64,000 nucleotides of DNA from Methanobacteriota archaeon (GTDB lineage Archaea; Methanobacteriota; Methanobacteria; Methanobacteriales; Methanobacteriaceae): NCBI GenBank assembly GCA_963787255.1, contig CAWBCJ010000025.1, forward strand, positions 256,001-320,000, given 5' to 3'. Shown here in pieces: positions 37,997 through 44,077 of the stretch; the first letter of the stretch is position 1; every line of letters starts with the position of its first letter. Below the pieces are notes generated by a model. The model was not told the origin of the DNA. It searched no databases and worked only from the letters and a program-made list of their open reading frames with translations. A program made the translations under genes and the position numbers.

Positions 37997-38308
37997 TTAT
38001 CTGCTTTTTCCATTTTGGCAGAAGTAAAGTTCAGGATCTCCAATTTTTAAATCATTTTCCTTCCAGACATCACATTCTTTACATCTGCATCGTTTCTTAG
38101 GGTTTAAATCTTTACAAAGTGCTTCTCCTGTAGAACAGTACATTCCAGGAACCCTATCCCTTTCAAAATATATTCCACTTTCGCTGCTCCATGCTATTTC
38201 CAGCATCATCCTTTTTTTACCTTCTACGCACACACTTTCAGCCTGAACTGGGCATTCTGGACATAAGCATCTCTTAATATTTTTAACATTAAATTCAACT
38301 TTTGGTAT
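37997..38308 (-). CDS. DUF2769-like Cys-rich protein (ATA start)
   Basis: Frame extends upstream of the predicted GTG through CLCPECPVQ to ATA 38308, 7 nt after GGAGG; paralogous to 42203-42511. Confidence 0.8.
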   Translation of the reverse strand: MPKVEFNVKNIKRCLCPECPVQAESVCVEGKKRMMLEIAWSSESGIYFERDRVPGMYCSTGEALCKDLNPKKRCRCKECDVWKENDLKIGDPELYFCQNGKSR

Positions 38309-38364
38309 TTCTAATCCTCCCTTGAATGTTTAACAACTTTTTTGGATTAATACATTATTTTTTT

Positions 38365-38643
38365 TTAGGTTGCACTTTCTTTAATGTCCTCTGTCACTTT
38401 ATCGTAGTATCCTTTAAATTCTTCGATTTGATTAACCTTATTTGTTTCAGTTAAATTGTATTTGGATTTATCAAGCTCTAAAACTATGTATATTTCGTTC
38501 CTGTTACTATTTTGTTTATCTACATAAGCTTTGTCTTTATACTCTTTTAATTCCACGTCTATTTCGTCCATAGAGTTAAAAAGCCATCCATCATCTACAA
38601 ATTCAAAAACATTTTCTTTTATATTTCTATTTAGAGTTAACAT
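38365..38643 (-). CDS. hypothetical protein
   Basis: 92 aa ORF directly downstream of 38656-39012, likely co-transcribed. Confidence 0.65.
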   Translation of the reverse strand: MLTLNRNIKENVFEFVDDGWLFNSMDEIDVELKEYKDKAYVDKQNSNRNEIYIVLELDKSKYNLTETNKVNQIEEFKGYYDKVTEDIKESAT

Positions 38644-38655
38644 TTTTTATCACTT

Positions 38656-39012
38656 TTAGTACCTAATTGCCCTGTATTCCTCATTTAAGATTACTTGCCT
38701 TTTGTGTGTTGCTTCTTCTTTTTTAGTTGCATGATTTGCATCGTCCATATAGACATTTAATTTAAACATTCCGCCTTCTTTAAAGGGGCCAACTGTTAGG
38801 TCTGAACGTTTATCTTTAGCTGTAAATTTTAAACGGGATGCTTGGTTTGGATTTACTTTATTTCCTTCGTTATCTTCATATTCGACATTTCCTTCTGCAT
38901 ATGTTGATGGTATGCGGAGTTTGGAAGCAGGTATTTTGGAAGGAACTTTTATTTTTTCGGGAATTGGTACCATTTTAATTTTACGTATTTTTTCCATTCC
39001 TTTAGAAGCCAT
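38656..39012 (-). CDS. hypothetical protein with internal duplication
   Basis: AGGTGA SD; two Y.D..(G/N)......A units. Confidence 0.65.
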   Translation of the reverse strand: MASKGMEKIRKIKMVPIPEKIKVPSKIPASKLRIPSTYAEGNVEYEDNEGNKVNPNQASRLKFTAKDKRSDLTVGPFKEGGMFKLNVYMDDANHATKKEEATHKRQVILNEEYRAIRY

Positions 39013-39436
39013 AAATATCACCTACAAATAATTTTTAATACTTATTATACATTTATTAATATTTCTAATTAACTATGAAAAATAAAATTTAGACGATGCC
39101 CATAAAAGTAAAAGGAATTTATAATTTTATTATAAATTAAAAAAATAGTGTTAATTATGCTTTTTCATTTTTAATCATAGAATTAATTCTTATTTTTTTT
39201 AATTAAATCCTGTCTCCATAATAATGTTCTATTAGTTTTAATTATTTTTGAAAGACTGGTGTATTGTGATTATTTATTATTTGGAAAAATGAGGATAAAT
39301 TAGTTGCTTAGGGTATATGTATTTAGCTAAATACTGCTATTTCTACAATTTTTTATTTGTTGCTTCTTTTAATGTTGATTTGCTTGTTGTGGTGATGGTG
39401 TTTTGGGTTATGTTGTGTGTTTTTTGTAATTTTTTG

Positions 39437-39466
39437 GTACTTCGTAATGGTAATGTTACGCACAAG
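39437..39466. repeat. putative recombination site 1 (CGTAA-N8-TTACG)
   Basis: GTACTTCGTAA TGGTAATG TTACGCACAAG, preceded by a GT-rich tract. Confidence 0.5.
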
Positions 39467-39690
39467 ATCATAATATGAATTAAAATGTATGCATTTATGG
39501 ACACCAAAAGGAGAGGCCTAAAGTGGCGTCCACAGGTACTTAATAACCATATATTACTGAGTTGTAAAGTAAACCTCACTTAATCCGTCAATTTGAACCC
39601 TTTTTTTCAAGGCCAAAATCTTTAAATCGGTAAATTTATTAATTTCTAAGCTTATATTAATATAAAATGGAAATAATTAGGAGGTAACTT

Positions 39691-40185
39691 ATGAAAAAAG
39701 CAACTCTTAATCAACAAAAGCACGATCCGGACAAGACAGAAGAGATTAAAACAATGTTACGTTGTACCCCGTTTCTTTTGTTTGATGGAAACTGCGCCGA
39801 GGCAATGACGTTCTATCAAAAATGTCTTGGCGGAGGTTTAACTCTTACGAAACTTGGCGATACTTCCATGAAGGCCCAGTTTCCACCAGAGAAGCACAAC
39901 AGGATTATCAATGCTCATCTTAAGAGTGGTGCTATTGATATATCAGCTACAGATTGGATGGCTTCTCCGGCCTTAGAACCAAAACAAGGTAACATGTACG
40001 CCATATTTGTCATCGGCGAGACGTATGACGAGTTGAAAAAAGTTTTTGATAAACTCAAATATGGGGCAGAAAAAGATCGGTTTCAAGACTTGCATGATAT
40101 GCCATTTGGAACATATGGACAATTTTATGATAGATATGGTGTACAATGGATTTTCAAAAGCGATAATAAAAAAGAGTCGTTATAG
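39691..40185 (+). CDS. VOC/glyoxalase family protein (PhnB-like)
   Basis: PFLLFDGNCAEAMTFY and PFGTYGQFYDRYGVQW motifs. Confidence 0.9.
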   Translation: MKKATLNQQKHDPDKTEEIKTMLRCTPFLLFDGNCAEAMTFYQKCLGGGLTLTKLGDTSMKAQFPPEKHNRIINAHLKSGAIDISATDWMASPALEPKQGNMYAIFVIGETYDELKKVFDKLKYGAEKDRFQDLHDMPFGTYGQFYDRYGVQWIFKSDNKKESL

Positions 40186-40239
40186 TTGCTCGAATCTCCT
40201 TTGAGCAATTATCTATTAAAAGTAAAAGGTGAAAATAAT

Positions 40240-40626
40240 ATGAAAAAAGTAGAAAAAGTCGCACAAAACACCACCAAAAAAGCCGCGAATAAAGCAGACG
40301 GGGAAAGCGCCGTGCTCGCGAACATCGCTGAGATGACGGAACCGGATCGAGCCATGGGCGAGCGGCTCCATGCTATCATCAAAACCAGCGCTCCAACCCT
40401 CTCGCCGAGACTCTGGTACGGGATGCCCGCGTATGCCAAGGACGGTAATGTTGTCTGCTTCTTCCAAAGTGCACAGAAGTTCAAAACGAGGTACGCGACG
40501 TTCGGCTTCAGCGACAAGGCGAACCTCGACGAAGGCAACTTGTGGCCGGTCGCTTTCGCGCTGAAGGAGTTGACCGCCGCTGAAGAGGCGATGATCGCCG
40601 CGCTAGTGAAGAAAGCAGTGAGCTGA
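40240..40626 (+). CDS. DUF1801/YdhG-like protein, high GC, horizontally acquired
   Basis: [26 protein letters not shown] motif; AGGTGA SD before ATG 40240; 58-62% GC in two 60-nt lines counted. Confidence 0.88.
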
Positions 40627-40725
40627 GGACCTATTTTATTAAAAATTCATAATGTAATGATAAATTAAATTCAGTGATCAGAATTTATCTAAAATGAAGA
40701 TTTTTTTTGTATTTTTAGTGTAGTT

Positions 40726-40753
40726 GTACTTTGTTATAAACGATTAGCGAAAG
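40726..40753. repeat. putative degenerate recombination site 2
   Basis: GTACTTTGTTA TAAACGAT TAGCGAAAG aligns with site 1 and has the same 8-bp spacer. Confidence 0.4.
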
Positions 40754-40819
40754 GTCGTTTAATTTTTTTTTAGTGAACTGCAATGATACTGAAAATGTTG
40801 GAATTTTTAGTGGATTTTT

Positions 40820-40847
40820 ACTTCGTTAAACAATTCTATAACGAAGT
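40820..40847. repeat. 28-bp dif-like palindrome (11-6-11)
   Basis: ACTTCGTTAAA CAATTC TATAACGAAGT; arms are 10/11 complementary. Confidence 0.6.
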
Positions 40848-41024
40848 TCAACAAAAAATCCTCCTAAAAAACACAAAAAATCAACAACTTTAATCAAAAA
40901 CACAACAATTGAAAAAATATTTGATAATTTTAAAATTTATAAGTAATTCTGAAATTTTATATTGTTATTTTAAATCAACTTACAGCAAAAAAATAATTCA
41001 AACAGAACCCTACAAACACTCCAA

Positions 41025-41187
41025 CTAATCACGCATCACAGAAACCATAACACACAACCGACCATTCTGATCCTTCAATTCCTGATAATTCATCTTTAAT
41101 TCCCTGTAATCAGATATACTGACCGGTGGCTTAACATCAGTTATAGTTTACATGCTCTATGTACTGCAAGTATACTGCCTTTAAAAT
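41025..41187 (-). pseudogene. probable C-terminal remnant of a tyrosine integrase
   Basis: Minus strand reads ILKAVYLQYIEHV/TITDVKPPVSISDYRELKMNYQELKDQNGRL (one indel). By eye it resembles the post-catalytic tail and coiled coil of methanogen integrases; no catalytic residues remain. Confidence 0.4.
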
Positions 41188-41502
41188 TATACGTAATGGT
41201 CAAGTAGTAGGCATCTCTTGCACTGTTGTTATATTTATGTTAGAAATTTCTATTTGTATAACCTTTATATTTATCTATGATTGGTGTAATGTGCTTGTTT
41301 TTATGATTTTAGTTTTTTTTTGTATGTTAAAAAATAATGGATTATTATAGGGGTATGGTGAATAATGTTTCATAAATATTTTGAAAAACTATTCTTTTTT
41401 TTATTTAAAATTTTATTTGGAATTAATTAATAAAAAATATTAGAAAATTATTATTATAGTTTCAACAAAAATAATATTATAAATTATATGGATGTGAAAA
41501 TC

Positions 41503-41787
41503 GTGAAATATATTGTTTTGGGGAAATGGACAGATCAAGGAAGGAAAACTATTCCAGATATAGAAAAAAGAGTTGAAACTGCACGAAATTTAACAGAAAA
41601 ACAAAATGGGAGTATGAACCTTTACTTTACCATGGGCGAATACGATTTTGTAGCAATAATTGATATGCCCAACGAAGAGAATATGGTAGAAATTCTCATG
41701 AAACTTAACGCTATGGACAATTTTGCAACAAAAACCCTTAAAGCTTGGACTGATTCTGAATTCGTGAAAATGGTTTCAAAACTTTAA
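41503..41787 (+). CDS. GYD domain protein
   Basis: KYIVLGKWTDQG...YFTMGEYDFV...TKTLKAW. Confidence 0.88.
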   Translation: MKYIVLGKWTDQGRKTIPDIEKRVETARNLTEKQNGSMNLYFTMGEYDFVAIIDMPNEENMVEILMKLNAMDNFATKTLKAWTDSEFVKMVSKL

Positions 41788-41874
41788 AAAATCAACTAAA
41801 AAATGATAGATCTCTTGCTTGATGGTCAGGCAGAAAAAATCATATGATTAAAATTTTCTTTTTTAATTTTAAGT

Positions 41875-41895
41875 CGTTATGGCGCTATTATTACG
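41875..41895. repeat. putative recombination site (CGTTA-N11-TTACG)
   Basis: Right arm TTACGCAGAA matches site 1 TTACGCACAA; T-rich left flank and A-rich right flank. Confidence 0.4.
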
Positions 41896-42202
41896 CAGAA
41901 ACAGAAAAAAATTAGCTCAAAAAAATAGCTAGCTCTTTAATAAAACTGCAACATAATTAGAAAAATAATATTTAACTCATTTGATTAATTTTATTGGATA
42001 ATCCATTATACTGAATTTATCATGCTCAATTCTACATTCACGTAGTTTCTTATCTATTAATATGGATACATTCATGCATTTTACGTACCATGGCTTCGGT
42101 TACTTCCAATTTATTCACCATAACTGTAATGGTTGATATTTTAGGTTGATTGTGTTAAAGAGCAAATGTAAATAGAGTAATTAATAAGTTTTTTAGTTGT
42201 AA

Positions 42203-42511
42203 TTATCGTGCTTCAAATTTCACGCAGAAATATTCACCAGGTTCCCCTTCACCAAGTTTATATTCCTTCCAGATATCACAGCCACTACACTGACATGCCT
42301 GTTCTGAATCGAAGTCTTTACATTCAGATTTTCCGGTTACGCAATATAGTCCGGGAATTTCTTGTGGATTGGATATATTTTCTTCTTGCATTAATTCTTT
42401 TTCTATCATATTTTCGATTTTTTCATCAGCGCATTGACTTTTACTTTGAACTGGACATTCTGGACAAATACATTTTTGAAGATTCTCAATAGTTAAGTCT
42501 ATATCAACCAA
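42203..42511 (-). CDS. DUF2769-like Cys-rich protein
   Basis: CICPECPVQ...LYCVTGKSEC...CQCSGC..W...YFC. Confidence 0.85.
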   Translation of the reverse strand: MVDIDLTIENLQKCICPECPVQSKSQCADEKIENMIEKELMQEENISNPQEIPGLYCVTGKSECKDFDSEQACQCSGCDIWKEYKLGEGEPGEYFCVKFEAR

Positions 42512-42647
42512 ATTAACACCCCTATATGTTATTTTTACTTTTATACTTAATATGATTAAATTTAAGTTACAATTTACAGATATAATAAATAAAAGTGAAT
42601 TAACATAAAAATAATATTTATTATAGAATTTTCAGGAATGGATAAAA

Positions 42648-43109
42648 ATGGAAAGAAGTTATGATGATGAGTTAAAAGACCGTAATTACGGTGATTATAT
42701 TTTTGAAACTCCTTACTGGATTATTTTTCTAGCACCAAACCAAAGTAATATAGGAACATGTGTTGTTGCCTTAAAAAGACATTATGGAACCCTAGATGGT
42801 TTAATAGATGATGAATGGCTTGATTTTGGTAATATTGTTAAAAATTTAGAACGTTCCTTAAAAGAATTATTTAAACCGACCATGTTTAATTGGGGTGCGC
42901 TTATGAACGCGGATTACTTAAAAGAAAATCCCGATCCACATATTCATTGGCATTTCATACCACGTTACAGGCATAAGGTTGAATTTGAAGGTTTTATCTT
43001 TGATGATCAGTATTTTGGCTCTATGCATCCAAGGCCAATTATGGAAGTTCCAGAAAATGTTAGAATAAAGATTATTGAAAAGATTAAAGAAAAATTGGAA
43101 CTGAGGTAA
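42648..43109 (+). CDS. HIT family hydrolase
   Basis: PHIHWHFIPRY histidine triad. Confidence 0.9.
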   Translation: MERSYDDELKDRNYGDYIFETPYWIIFLAPNQSNIGTCVVALKRHYGTLDGLIDDEWLDFGNIVKNLERSLKELFKPTMFNWGALMNADYLKENPDPHIHWHFIPRYRHKVEFEGFIFDDQYFGSMHPRPIMEVPENVRIKIIEKIKEKLELR

Positions 43110-43111
43110 TA

Positions 43112-44077
43112 TTGTTGCAACCGGAATATTTTAGCTTGAAAAATTTTAAATTTGAATCTCAATTTCTTTTACCTGAATTAAAAATAGAATATTCATCATT
43201 TGGCAGGAAAGAAATAGATGAAAATGGAAATTTAACCAATGCAATTATTTATCTTCATGGTTGGAGTGGAGATTACAACTCAATTAAACGCATTAAGGAT
43301 ATTGTGGGTGCTGGAAAGCCTATTGACACCCAAAAATATTATGTAATCTGTCCAACAGCTTTAGGTTCTCCCGGATCATCAAGCCCATCCAATTCAGGAT
43401 TAGGCCATTATTTCCCGGAATATACAATTAAAGATATGGTAAATGCTGTTTATTCTTTTCTTATTGAATGTTTTAATGTGGTGCATCTTAAAGGAGTTAT
43501 TGGAACATCTCTTGGGGGTTTTCAAGCGCTTGAATGGGCGGTGAGTTATCCTGATTTTATGGATTTTGTTATACCACTTACAACAAGTCATGATGTACGG
43601 GGAAAAAATTTTGCAATCTTTAATTTAATGAATACCTATATAAAAGATGATCCCGAGTATAATGGCGGTGAATATGAAAAGAATCCGGAAATAGGCTGTC
43701 AAAATGCCTCTATGCTTCTATATCTTTTTGGGTTTTCCGATAAGTATTATAAAAAATGTTCTAATGAAGAAGTACTTGAATCAATTAATGAAATGAAAAG
43801 AGCAGGGGTTGAAATGGATGCTAATGATATGGTATGGCGTAACAGGGCAGCTATTTCACATGATGTCACTCCACGAATCTCTAATATTAAAGCAAAAACG
43901 CTTATTATCGGGGTAAATCAGGATCTGTATTTTCCGCCGGATACAGATACAATACCTTTGTCAAAATTGATTAAAGGTTCAAAACTTTTTTTATATGATT
44001 CTATATTGGGTCATTTGGGAACTAGTGAAATAATAAAAGCAGAAAATGTTATTCGAGAATTTTTAGAGGAAATATAG
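43112..44077 (+). CDS. alpha/beta hydrolase, homoserine O-acetyltransferase-like
   Basis: LHGWSG, GTSLGG nucleophile, DLYFPP and GHL motifs. Confidence 0.85.
   Translation: MLQPEYFSLKNFKFESQFLLPELKIEYSSFGRKEIDENGNLTNAIIYLHGWSGDYNSIKRIKDIVGAGKPIDTQKYYVICPTALGSPGSSSPSNSGLGHYFPEYTIKDMVNAVYSFLIECFNVVHLKGVIGTSLGGFQALEWAVSYPDFMDFVIPLTTSHDVRGKNFAIFNLMNTYIKDDPEYNGGEYEKNPEIGCQNASMLLYLFGFSDKYYKKCSNEEVLESINEMKRAGVEMDANDMVWRNRAAISHDVTPRISNIKAKTLIIGVNQDLYFPPDTDTIPLSKLIKGSKLFLYDSILGHLGTSEIIKAENVIREFLEEI

Follow-up and report, generated by a model that had tools for sequence, protein, structure and literature searches.

Background

Among the closest described relatives of the locus considered here are the archaeal XerA/dif systems of Pyrococcus abyssi, Thermococcus kodakarensis and Thermoplasma acidophilum, in which a 28-bp imperfect palindrome of two 11-bp arms around a 6-bp centre lies near the terminus and is served by a single XerA encoded away from it, according to the accessible parts of Cortez 2010 (PMC2958812) and of the review by Badel 2021 (PMC8371274). 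We describe a site of the same layout, called site 3 below, in a stretch of 64,000 nucleotides from a Methanobacteriaceae genome (the window; G000:C25:256001-320000, where G labels a genome, C a contig and, further on, L an extracted locus stretch). Here too a single XerA is encoded elsewhere, and the position is probably near the terminus. The locus differs from the described systems in having 6-9 related sites per genome instead of one, and in the gene cassettes and hybrid sites that adjoin the full site. The genome itself (2.47 Mb, 33% GC, 29 contigs) is compared with a set of 23 genomes of its genus, used for the scans of the site family and of an integrase family, and with contigs from four soil or sediment metagenome runs. 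The Thermococcales dif (TTTTGATATAATGTACCTTATATGACAA, in the available text of PMC11840125) is unlike site 3 in sequence. The published dif candidate of Methanosphaera stadtmanae, as given in the accessible part of Cortez 2010 (Fig S6; PMC2958812), is weak (hidden Markov model E 0.00019) and has a different sequence; a M. stadtmanae record carries ACTTCGTTATA-CGGTAG-TATTACGAAGT.

In bacteria, the integrative mobile elements exploiting Xer (IMEX), such as the CTX and TLC phages of Vibrio and the gonococcal genetic island, carry no recombinase of their own and use dif as their integration site, where they form tandem arrays. On one side of such an element stands a working dif, on the other a degenerate one in which one arm and the centre survive (Castillo 2017, PMC5357621, in its accessible portion). 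The locus resembles them in its recombinase-less inserts, in the full and degenerate dif flanks and in the tandem arrays beside dif. It differs in the archaeal host with a single XerA and no FtsK, in cassettes of 1-4 genes instead of phages or large islands, and in one conserved cassette-end motif that its unrelated cargoes share. The word IMEX does not occur in the available text of the 2021 review of archaeal tyrosine recombinases (PMC8371274), and the accessible portion of PMC5357621 names no such elements for archaea.

The pdif modules of Acinetobacter plasmids are likewise small cargo modules bounded by Xer-type 28-bp sites. On plasmids they are flanked by XerC/D and XerD/C sites of opposite orientation, and their resistance or toxin-antitoxin cargo is shuffled between replicons, whereas the hybrids described here all have one orientation, are chromosomal and stand beside one full site. 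As in the integron (IntI, attI, attC), small unrelated cassettes, each with a conserved recombination element, are stacked in one direction at a single platform. No IntI stands beside the array, however, and the IntI-attI pair that makes an integron is missing; the junction element is a dif-derived, duplex-type site and not an attC hairpin, and the cassette has its own promoter. The loxP site of phage P1, which serves Cre, has the arm ATAACTTCGTATA in a 13-8-13 layout. The arm ACTTCGTTATA resembles it bar one extra T, both being palindromic tyrosine-recombinase core sites, and the resemblance is probably either coincidence or an expression of common preferences of Xer-like recombinases. The outer pattern of the family also recalls the dif of Bacillus subtilis, which starts ACTTCC.

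The dif-like site and its family

The initial annotation of the window had listed six related sites with 5-bp arms and a variable spacer, numbered 1 to 6 here from left to right, and had likened them to dif and lox. A sequence check finds each of the six strings in place, and the likeness is borne out by the third of them:

40820-40847, no strand: site 3, full 28-bp dif-like site, ACTTCGTTAAA-CAATTC-TATAACGAAGT, in the layout 11-6-11

The 5-bp arm is a mis-defined unit, the real one being 28 bp long, and the six strings do not form one family. Site 3 is a perfect member of a genus-wide palindrome, ACTTCGTTAWA-N6-TWTAACGAAGT, sites 1, 2 and perhaps 5 are hybrids, and sites 4 and 6 are not sites. 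The spacer does not vary either. The pattern ACTTCGT-N(6-20)-ACGAAGT is found at 40 places in 15 of the 23 genus genomes (10 places for the reversed control), and at 39 of the 40 the outer 7-mers are separated by exactly 14 nt. A logo of 38 sites shows conservation of the arms ACTTCGTTAWA (positions 1-11), no A at position 12 and no constraint at positions 13-16. With the spacing fixed and up to 3 mismatches allowed, 7 sites are found in G000, 9 in G014 and 6 in G005, against 0, 0 and 1 for the reversed control. Records of Methanobrevibacter and Methanosphaera contain the outer pattern as well, and many Clostridia records have a single copy of it each.

A family site is present in the syntenic gap of four relatives (G013, G010, G002, G003), and a 28-mer identical to site 3 is found in G011 with unrelated flanks. 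Housekeeping genes make up most of the neighbours at 41 family loci, with no recombinase recurring there. Such a distribution could also be produced by palindromes that bind a host protein, be it a regulator or a chromosome-organising or boundary protein, with no recombination at all and with the variable genes belonging to a fast-evolving, terminus-proximal island. That each genome has several copies, lying between housekeeping genes at positions that are conserved, fits this explanation. So does the identity of whole 28-mers, centre included, in up to 5 species despite flanks that cannot be aligned, and the dif region of T. kodakarensis is also a chromosome-domain boundary (PMC11840125, in its available text). 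The 11-6-11 arrangement, however, is the layout of Xer sites, and the hybrids and cargo boundaries described below speak further against protein binding as the whole explanation, which we consider quite unlikely.

Several further features of the family are recorded here as observations. In G011:C219 (L082, 3764-3830) a second right half, together with the start of the window's right flank, comes 9 nt and two Ns after the 28-mer of site 3; the duplicated right half may be an insertion collapsed at a scaffold gap. A repeated element in the own genome (C18:1600/2447, C22:18934/19782, C9:33005) contains a pair of degenerate dif-like sites, ATTTCTTTATAGCGCAATATGACGAATT and ACTTCATTATATCGTTCTATAACGATTT, spaced by some 850 bp; its flanks are identical or nearly so on the compared contigs, and two copies lie near contig ends. 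Short AT-rich hairpin runs (GACTGTCAAAA..TTTTGACGT; CAAAAAA-N5-TTTTTTG) stand beside many sites, for example in flanks of G007, G014, G016, G018 and G003 (L063, L065, L059, L084:1640-1758), and G018 has an identical 30-nt left flank on two different family sites. An indel by the site on the own contigs C20, C21 and C29 was set aside as a cargo boundary, its right edge being at the site and its left edge having none. The idea that the three contigs represent attP, attL and attR forms was likewise rejected, the three being diverged copies (88-97%).

Chromosomal position and the recombinase

The conserved left flank of the locus ends near 38643-39090 and the right flank resumes at 42645; what lies between varies from species to species, in line with the hotspot proposed in the initial annotation. 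Along contig C25 the cumulative GC skew keeps climbing over some 300 kb before it reverses at 302-312 kb. Site 3, at 296,820 on the contig, is thus within about 5-15 kb of the turn, as far as a noisy skew in a genome of 29 contigs can place it, and the maximum of a k-mer skew is at 302,021. In G014, a single contig of 3,168,381 bp, the counterpart of site 3 at 921,063 (near the Lhr-helicase flank) and the best Cdc6 match at 2,559,849 divide the circle into 48.3 and 51.7%, and in G005 the counterpart is 49.4% of the circle from the best Cdc6 match. For these figures the origins are taken from the cdc6 position, and the assignment of counterparts crosses rearranged loci.

The genome encodes one clear copy of XerA, a protein of 330 aa on G000:C26 that scores 353 bits against NF040815 (cut-off 220) and matches P. 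abyssi XerA (PDB 4a8e, E 5.4e-50) and 5hxy (E 5.9e-41). A cognate recombinase is therefore available. Against the integron-integrase model the same protein reaches 128.8 bits, with a cut-off of 265. PF00589 has four matches in the genome, on contigs C26, C18, C24 and C17, and none at the locus. With family, position and XerA taken together, site 3 is most simply read as a chromosomal dif, and it is probably the dif of this Methanobacteriaceae genome and the target of the single XerA encoded elsewhere.

Two observations on the neighbourhood may be added. In the larger genomes (G014, G007, G016, G017, G018) the Lhr-side and HIT-side flanks are 17-20 kb apart and mutually inverted. The TRAM gene that neighbours the terminus site in G016 and G032 is found in the own genome beside another family site, C29:1034985.

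Hybrid sites

Three of the remaining strings combine a dif-like left part with a different right part:

39438-39476, plus strand: site 1, hybrid junction, arm ACTTCGTAAT (39439-39448), centre remnant GG
40728-40763, plus strand: site 2, decayed hybrid junction, ACTTTGTTATA-AACGAT-TAGCG..AAAGGTCGTTTAAT
41871-41900, plus strand: site 5, partial hybrid, (AAGT)CGTTAT-GGCGC-TATTATTACGC-AGAA, without the GATCGTAATA end

On alignment with relatives they are hybrids of a dif-like left arm and centre joined to a cassette-end motif, TAATGTTRSGC-ACAAGATCGTAATA, site 5 being the weakest case. In site 1 the right part consists of a non-dif arm, TAATGTTACGC (39451-39461), followed by the cassette-end motif ACAAGATCATAATA. 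The pair TAATGTTACGC-ACAAGATCATAATA recurs near the same-locus site in G016, G007, G014, G005 and G032, and also at the DUF1801 cassette of G009; the homology to that cassette (G009:C8) starts at 39450, inside site 1. The aligned unit of the hybrids reads ACTTCGTAATA, TAATGG, TAATGTTGGSC and ACAWGATCGTAATAT, of which the arm and centre equal those of an intact site in G017, ACTTCGTAATA-TAATGG-TTTAACGAAGT. Relative to this canonical form site 1 has a 5-bp deletion, and in a related strain (two contigs of metagenome run X3) an inserted TAATA restores the canonical ACTTCGTAATA-TAATGG-TAATG. Site 1 is the only match to the motif in its own genome at up to 1 mismatch. At the same tolerance the 15-nt core CACAAGATCGTAATA has 13 genome-wide matches in 5 relatives, with none for the control, and 11 of the 13 lie in arrays beside this one site. 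A scan of the metagenomes with the 15-mer core gave no hybrid context or full site among at least 122 loci listed, the word being too short for a collection of that kind.

Site 2 has a T/G-rich left flank from about 40700. Flank and arm together are 88.9% identical over 36 bp to the same-locus site of G016, and the site aligns to the hybrid found some 105 bp ahead of the full site in both G014 (G014_9959) and G007. Site 5 aligns with a second subtype of hybrid (G016_9013, G014_9959, G007_10152), sharing just the arm-like start and TATTATTACGC; it was missed by a motif scan that allows substitutions only.

Could the strings be no more than weak inverted repeats, over-read in AT-rich intergenic DNA? 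The shared motifs reported for them are real: TACTT precedes sites 1-3, YGTWATGG is common to sites 1, 4, 5 and 6 (with one further minus-strand copy at 41045), and TTACGCASAA is common to sites 1 and 5. The loosest regular expression that fits the original description, constructed after the fact, matches 5 of the 6 sites (site 4 fails, as its right arm begins with G) and has 199 plus-strand matches in the 2.47-Mb genome, or 0.23 expected in 2,821 bp. Counted on both strands, the genome has 29 copies of TACTTYGTWA, of which 3, all plus-strand, fall at the locus; CGTAATGGT occurs 7 times and TTACGCASAA 6 times, each with 2 copies at the locus. A shared 9-mer in 2.8 kb of AT-rich DNA is nevertheless to be expected by chance, by our estimate. 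A fairer test on the arms only, with 315 half-sites in the genome at up to 1 mismatch to ACTTCGTHAWA, gives a probability of about 0.056 for two or more extra half-sites near site 3, which leaves sites 1 and 2 weak on arm matches. Taken by themselves, the six strings have too little statistical weight for the claim, which rests on the comparison across genomes: sites 1 and 2 are taken as real because they are homologous to hybrid sites in relatives, site 3 belongs perfectly to a family of fixed geometry, and the core motif is nearly exclusive to this locus. The chance explanation is thus refuted for sites 1-3 and stands for sites 4 and 6. Neither of the latter is a recombination site, site 4 lying within the C-terminal coding relic of an integrase pseudogene and site 6 within the conserved leader of a truncated multicopy small gene. 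As an account of the whole locus, chance is very improbable.

The cassette and its boundaries in relatives

Between sites 1 and 2 the window holds the following features:

39590-39705, plus strand: promoter, leader and first codons (MKKATLNQQK), a repeated block that stands before different genes
39691-40185, plus strand: VOC/glyoxalase-fold gene, 164 aa (Pfam PF06983 29.2 bits, PF00903 27.6 bits)
40240-40626, plus strand: DUF1801-like gene, 128 aa, GC 0.58 (Pfam PF08818 26.2 bits, just below the cut-off of 27.2; the G017 homologue scores 28.1)

Judged by its sequence, the VOC-DUF1801 unit is promoter-bearing cargo of foreign origin. The core of the DUF1801 gene (40297-40626) is at least 90% identical to many contigs from the four soil or sediment runs, and these contigs have GC-rich sequence on both sides. 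The promoter block is 89-90% identical to two other places in the own genome, C25:2864-2971 and C8:2415-2523. In G009, G005 and G017 it is fused directly to DUF1801 without VOC, from which it follows that VOC entered an existing DUF1801 unit. As an observation in its own right, the block of about 115 nt, with a ribosome-binding site and MKK.TLNQQK, stands before different genes here and in relatives (e.g. L018:92-199) and behaves like a portable expression module.

The cassette consists of VOC and DUF1801 only and holds no recombinase, and it is flanked as an IMEX is, with the order site 1, VOC-DUF1801 and sites 2/3, that is, a degenerate dif with arm and centre on the outside and a full dif within. 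The same layout of one or more hybrids and a full site is found in G014, G007, G016 and G005, and the 31 open reading frames scanned around the arrays of the relatives give no match to recombinase families. The nearest relative that has the locus is G003 (about 79% identity). Its left-flank homology runs to about 39345 and is followed by one site, VOC and DUF1801 being absent between the two. The proposal that foreign cassettes are bracketed by sites thus holds for VOC and the high-GC DUF1801 gene, which lie between dif-derived junctions; the integrase-like remnant and the GYD gene, which it also included, are not shown to be site-bounded.

The boundaries can be seen in the comparison of G014 with G007. 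The two are 92% identical over 5.7 kb, and the homology ends at a hybrid, after which about 4.2 kb in G014 and about 3.0 kb in G007 are unrelated. Homology resumes at the last hybrid and the full site (82.6%) and ends again at the right edge of the full site; 8.6 kb are extra in G014, and then the identity is 91%. The variable blocks hence start and end at sites, which is the coincidence of boundaries by which the initial annotation had proposed to be judged. The cargo of G014 is a DJ-1/PfpI gene followed by two unassigned genes and a SIR2-like gene, and that of G007 a DJ-1/PfpI gene followed by an MFS gene with PadR. We also observe SIR2-like proteins with ThsA/LmuA-like PADLOC matches at L094:8337-9797, in the array cargo of G014, and at L021:3151-4314 (G017:C13), beside an intact integrase; these are possibly defence genes.

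A second case is seen at the HisG locus, where G007 carries the family site ACTTCGTCATA-TCAACG-TTTAACGAAGT. In G014 the right arm of this site is at 1,283,617, behind a different arm and centre, and its left arm and centre are found about 323 kb away, before a different right arm. Because G014 carries the reciprocal halves apart, the break is placed at the right edge of the centre. A PsbP-like indel at the HisG site was discarded as a further case, not being adjacent to the site. If the palindromes served to bind a protein, junction coincidences would still arise where the conserved sites are the only alignable anchors. Against this, the 92% homology between G014 and G007 ends within a few bases of the sites, the hybrids retain arm and centre but continue into another, conserved right part, and the reciprocal half-sites of G014 lie 323 kb apart.

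A possible route of capture

The reading that we favour, and hold to be probable without being firm, is an IMEX-like capture of cassettes at an archaeal dif by a single XerA acting in trans. We infer the enzyme, a circular form of the cassette and the strand that is exchanged, and the steps would be the following. A circular cassette would carry one dif-like arm, a centre and a non-dif arm with the conserved motif ACAAGATCGTAATA, so that the cassette-type site would be a dif arm and centre followed by TAATGTTGGGC. XerA would recombine this circle with dif, the strands being exchanged at one border of the 6-bp centre. The outer product would be a dead hybrid of the host arm, the centre and the cassette arm, as in sites 1, 2 and perhaps 5, and the inner product a regenerated full dif, as in site 3. 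With the hybrid outside and the regenerated dif inside, new cassettes would therefore stack beside dif while dimer resolution is kept, and the DNA to the left of site 3 would be a short array of captured cassettes stacked on one side. The hybrids and the reciprocal halves in G014 fit an exchange at one edge of the centre, which is also how the Xer-dependent integration of some bacterial elements proceeds according to the accessible part of PMC5357621.

A wider claim would make the locus one instance of a gene-capture platform at the dif of Methanobacteriaceae, with XerA in trans repeatedly inserting small cassettes that have their own promoters and a common, conserved module of about 45-100 bp (a dif-like arm, a centre, TAATGTTGGSC and ACAAGATCGTAATA) and with dif regenerated each time. 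The locus would then parallel, in an archaeon, the arrays of IMEX as well as integrons. The other 5-8 dif-like sites of a genome would then be targets of XerA and breakpoints of large rearrangements. We put this forward tentatively, as a possibility short of a probable one.

A number of points weigh against capture at dif. A chromosome is held to have one dif only, yet these genomes contain 6-9 related sites each, several of them at conserved positions away from the terminus; hybrid arrays are carried by the site assigned to the terminus only. Around 36 family loci extra half-sites are not generally enriched: within 300 bp there are 4 where 3.7 are expected, and at 300-1500 bp 13 where 14.4 are expected, a result that suits a protein-binding palindrome as well. 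In G017 and G018 the site is present and the hybrid motif is absent within 20 kb. The centres of sites 1 and 3 differ, and the two are therefore not the products of one recent event. Neither a circular cassette nor an empty-site junction is seen in the contigs of the four metagenome runs, a comparison in which no contig spans the whole stretch, parts without cover are uninformative, and the best runs share at most 0.15 of the sampled words with the stretch. As to position, the words of the k-mer skew were chosen by splitting the contig at the site, which makes that test partly circular, and the GC skew of the own genome is noisy, the minimum on C29 (about 680 kb) being off cdc6 (386 kb). The status of the G014 and G005 sites as counterparts depends on the Lhr flank and on the 28-mer common to those relatives, and the G005 counterpart is 13 kb outside the two flanks. 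Finally, the 3' end of an integrase relic lies about 150 bp from site 3.

The right-hand side of the locus

To the right of site 3, and at the two edges of the variable region, we find:

40995-41240, minus strand: C-terminal relic of a tyrosine recombinase, about 80 codons, 2 frameshifts, 5' end lost
41229-41787, plus strand: GYD gene (41488-41787) with its upstream region (Pfam PF08734, 69.7 bits)
41977-42190, minus strand: truncated and frameshifted multicopy small gene with its leader, about 115 aa when intact
42203-42511, minus strand: DUF2769 gene (Pfam PF10967, 32.5 bits), the last variable gene before the right flank
38656-39021, minus strand: unassigned gene, left of the variable region
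from 42648: HIT gene, conserved right flank

The "integrase-like remnant" of the initial annotation is a genuine relic of a tyrosine recombinase. Its minus-strand reading (..GHKY..RDAYYL.. / ..VYLQY.. / ..TDVKPPVSISDYRELKMNYQELKDQN) aligns to an intact 384-aa gene in G017:C13 (L021:1868-3022) and to a broken copy in G005:C1, and the finding of the intact gene disposes of the alternative that the block is a non-coding RNA or another conserved non-coding element. Site 4 (41192-41211) lies inside the relic, just past the codons of the catalytic tyrosine (RDAYY), and homology to the intact integrase runs straight through it. The relic is truncated at about 41240, neither at site 4 nor at site 3, unlike a suicidal integrase of the SSV type, which is split at its att site. 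Against the NCBIfam XerA model the integrase reaches 67 bits, below the cut-off of 220.

The GYD unit is 84% identical to C22:4884-5444, 81% identical to C1:105954-106314 and 90% identical to G006:C8. The small gene has 14 copies in the genome, this one included; site 6 (42125-42145) is in its leader, and the inverted repeat is not kept in the other leader copies. An 89% identical copy of the DUF2769 gene is found elsewhere in G006. Because the GYD gene, the small gene, DUF2769 and the integrase relic recur jointly on C22 and C1, the right side of site 3 looks like the debris of a different, integrase-bearing element.

This debris raises the question whether the palindromes are attachment sites of the 384-aa tyrosine-recombinase family itself, with no part for XerA and with the cassettes as leftovers of decayed elements. 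The nearness of the relic to site 3 and the joint recurrence just described fit such an origin, and a mobile-element-type MCM/T5orf172 gene abuts the G016 site. Four of the 64 matches to the family in the 23 genomes lie within 2.5 kb of a site (G016:C12, G018:C2, G014:C1:543144 and the window), but by estimate about 1 such proximity is expected by chance, so that the 3 outside the window are not significant. The intact integrase of G017:C13 has no site within about 3 kb at up to 4 substitutions, no integrase family recurs among the neighbours of the 41 loci, and the arrays of G014, G007 and G016 have no integrase among the scanned open reading frames. Empty att sites, moreover, are not expected to persist at housekeeping positions and near the terminus. 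We regard this origin of the sites as unlikely and retain the capture of cassettes at dif by XerA.

Within the 64-kb window no tRNA gene is found that could serve as an integration target, and 38000-43500 gives no Rfam match at E up to 1. The small-gene family has an N-terminal ..VRKCKNVSILIDKKMRERRIEHDKY.. followed by a coiled coil, and its leader, some 75 nt long, is conserved; truncation affects many of the copies (own copies at C17:12518-12865, C25:17633-17995, C6:2266-2724 and 10 more), and the gene has no Pfam family above cut-off and no PADLOC match. Two small cysteine-rich DUF2769 genes, 37997-38233 (minus) and 42203-42511 (minus), flank the variable region, and a third, truncated copy lies by the integrase relic of C22 (C22:7558-7758).

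Significance

As far as our literature searches and the accessible texts reach, there is no published account, for Methanobacteriales or other archaea, of a site of the site 3 type, of dif-like sites in several copies or of arrays resembling IMEX, and a search for Methanobacterium together with XerA returned no paper that pairs the two. If the proposed route is true, it would provide a well-defined dif for Methanobacteriaceae, in an order whose only published candidate found in those texts is weak and of a different sequence. It would be the first Xer-exploiting gene capture described in archaea, within the same reach of the literature, and it would challenge the rule that dif is single-copy. 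Given the conserved site and motif, a single purified protein and short DNA substrates would suffice for a direct test of the reading.

The comparison suggests that archaea can capture genes at a dif-like site as some bacteria do. The cargo includes genes of bacterial origin, and the relatives carry genes of stress, efflux and defence types (DJ-1/PfpI, MFS with PadR, SIR2-like). Such a platform would therefore offer methanogens a concrete path by which genes enter from another domain.

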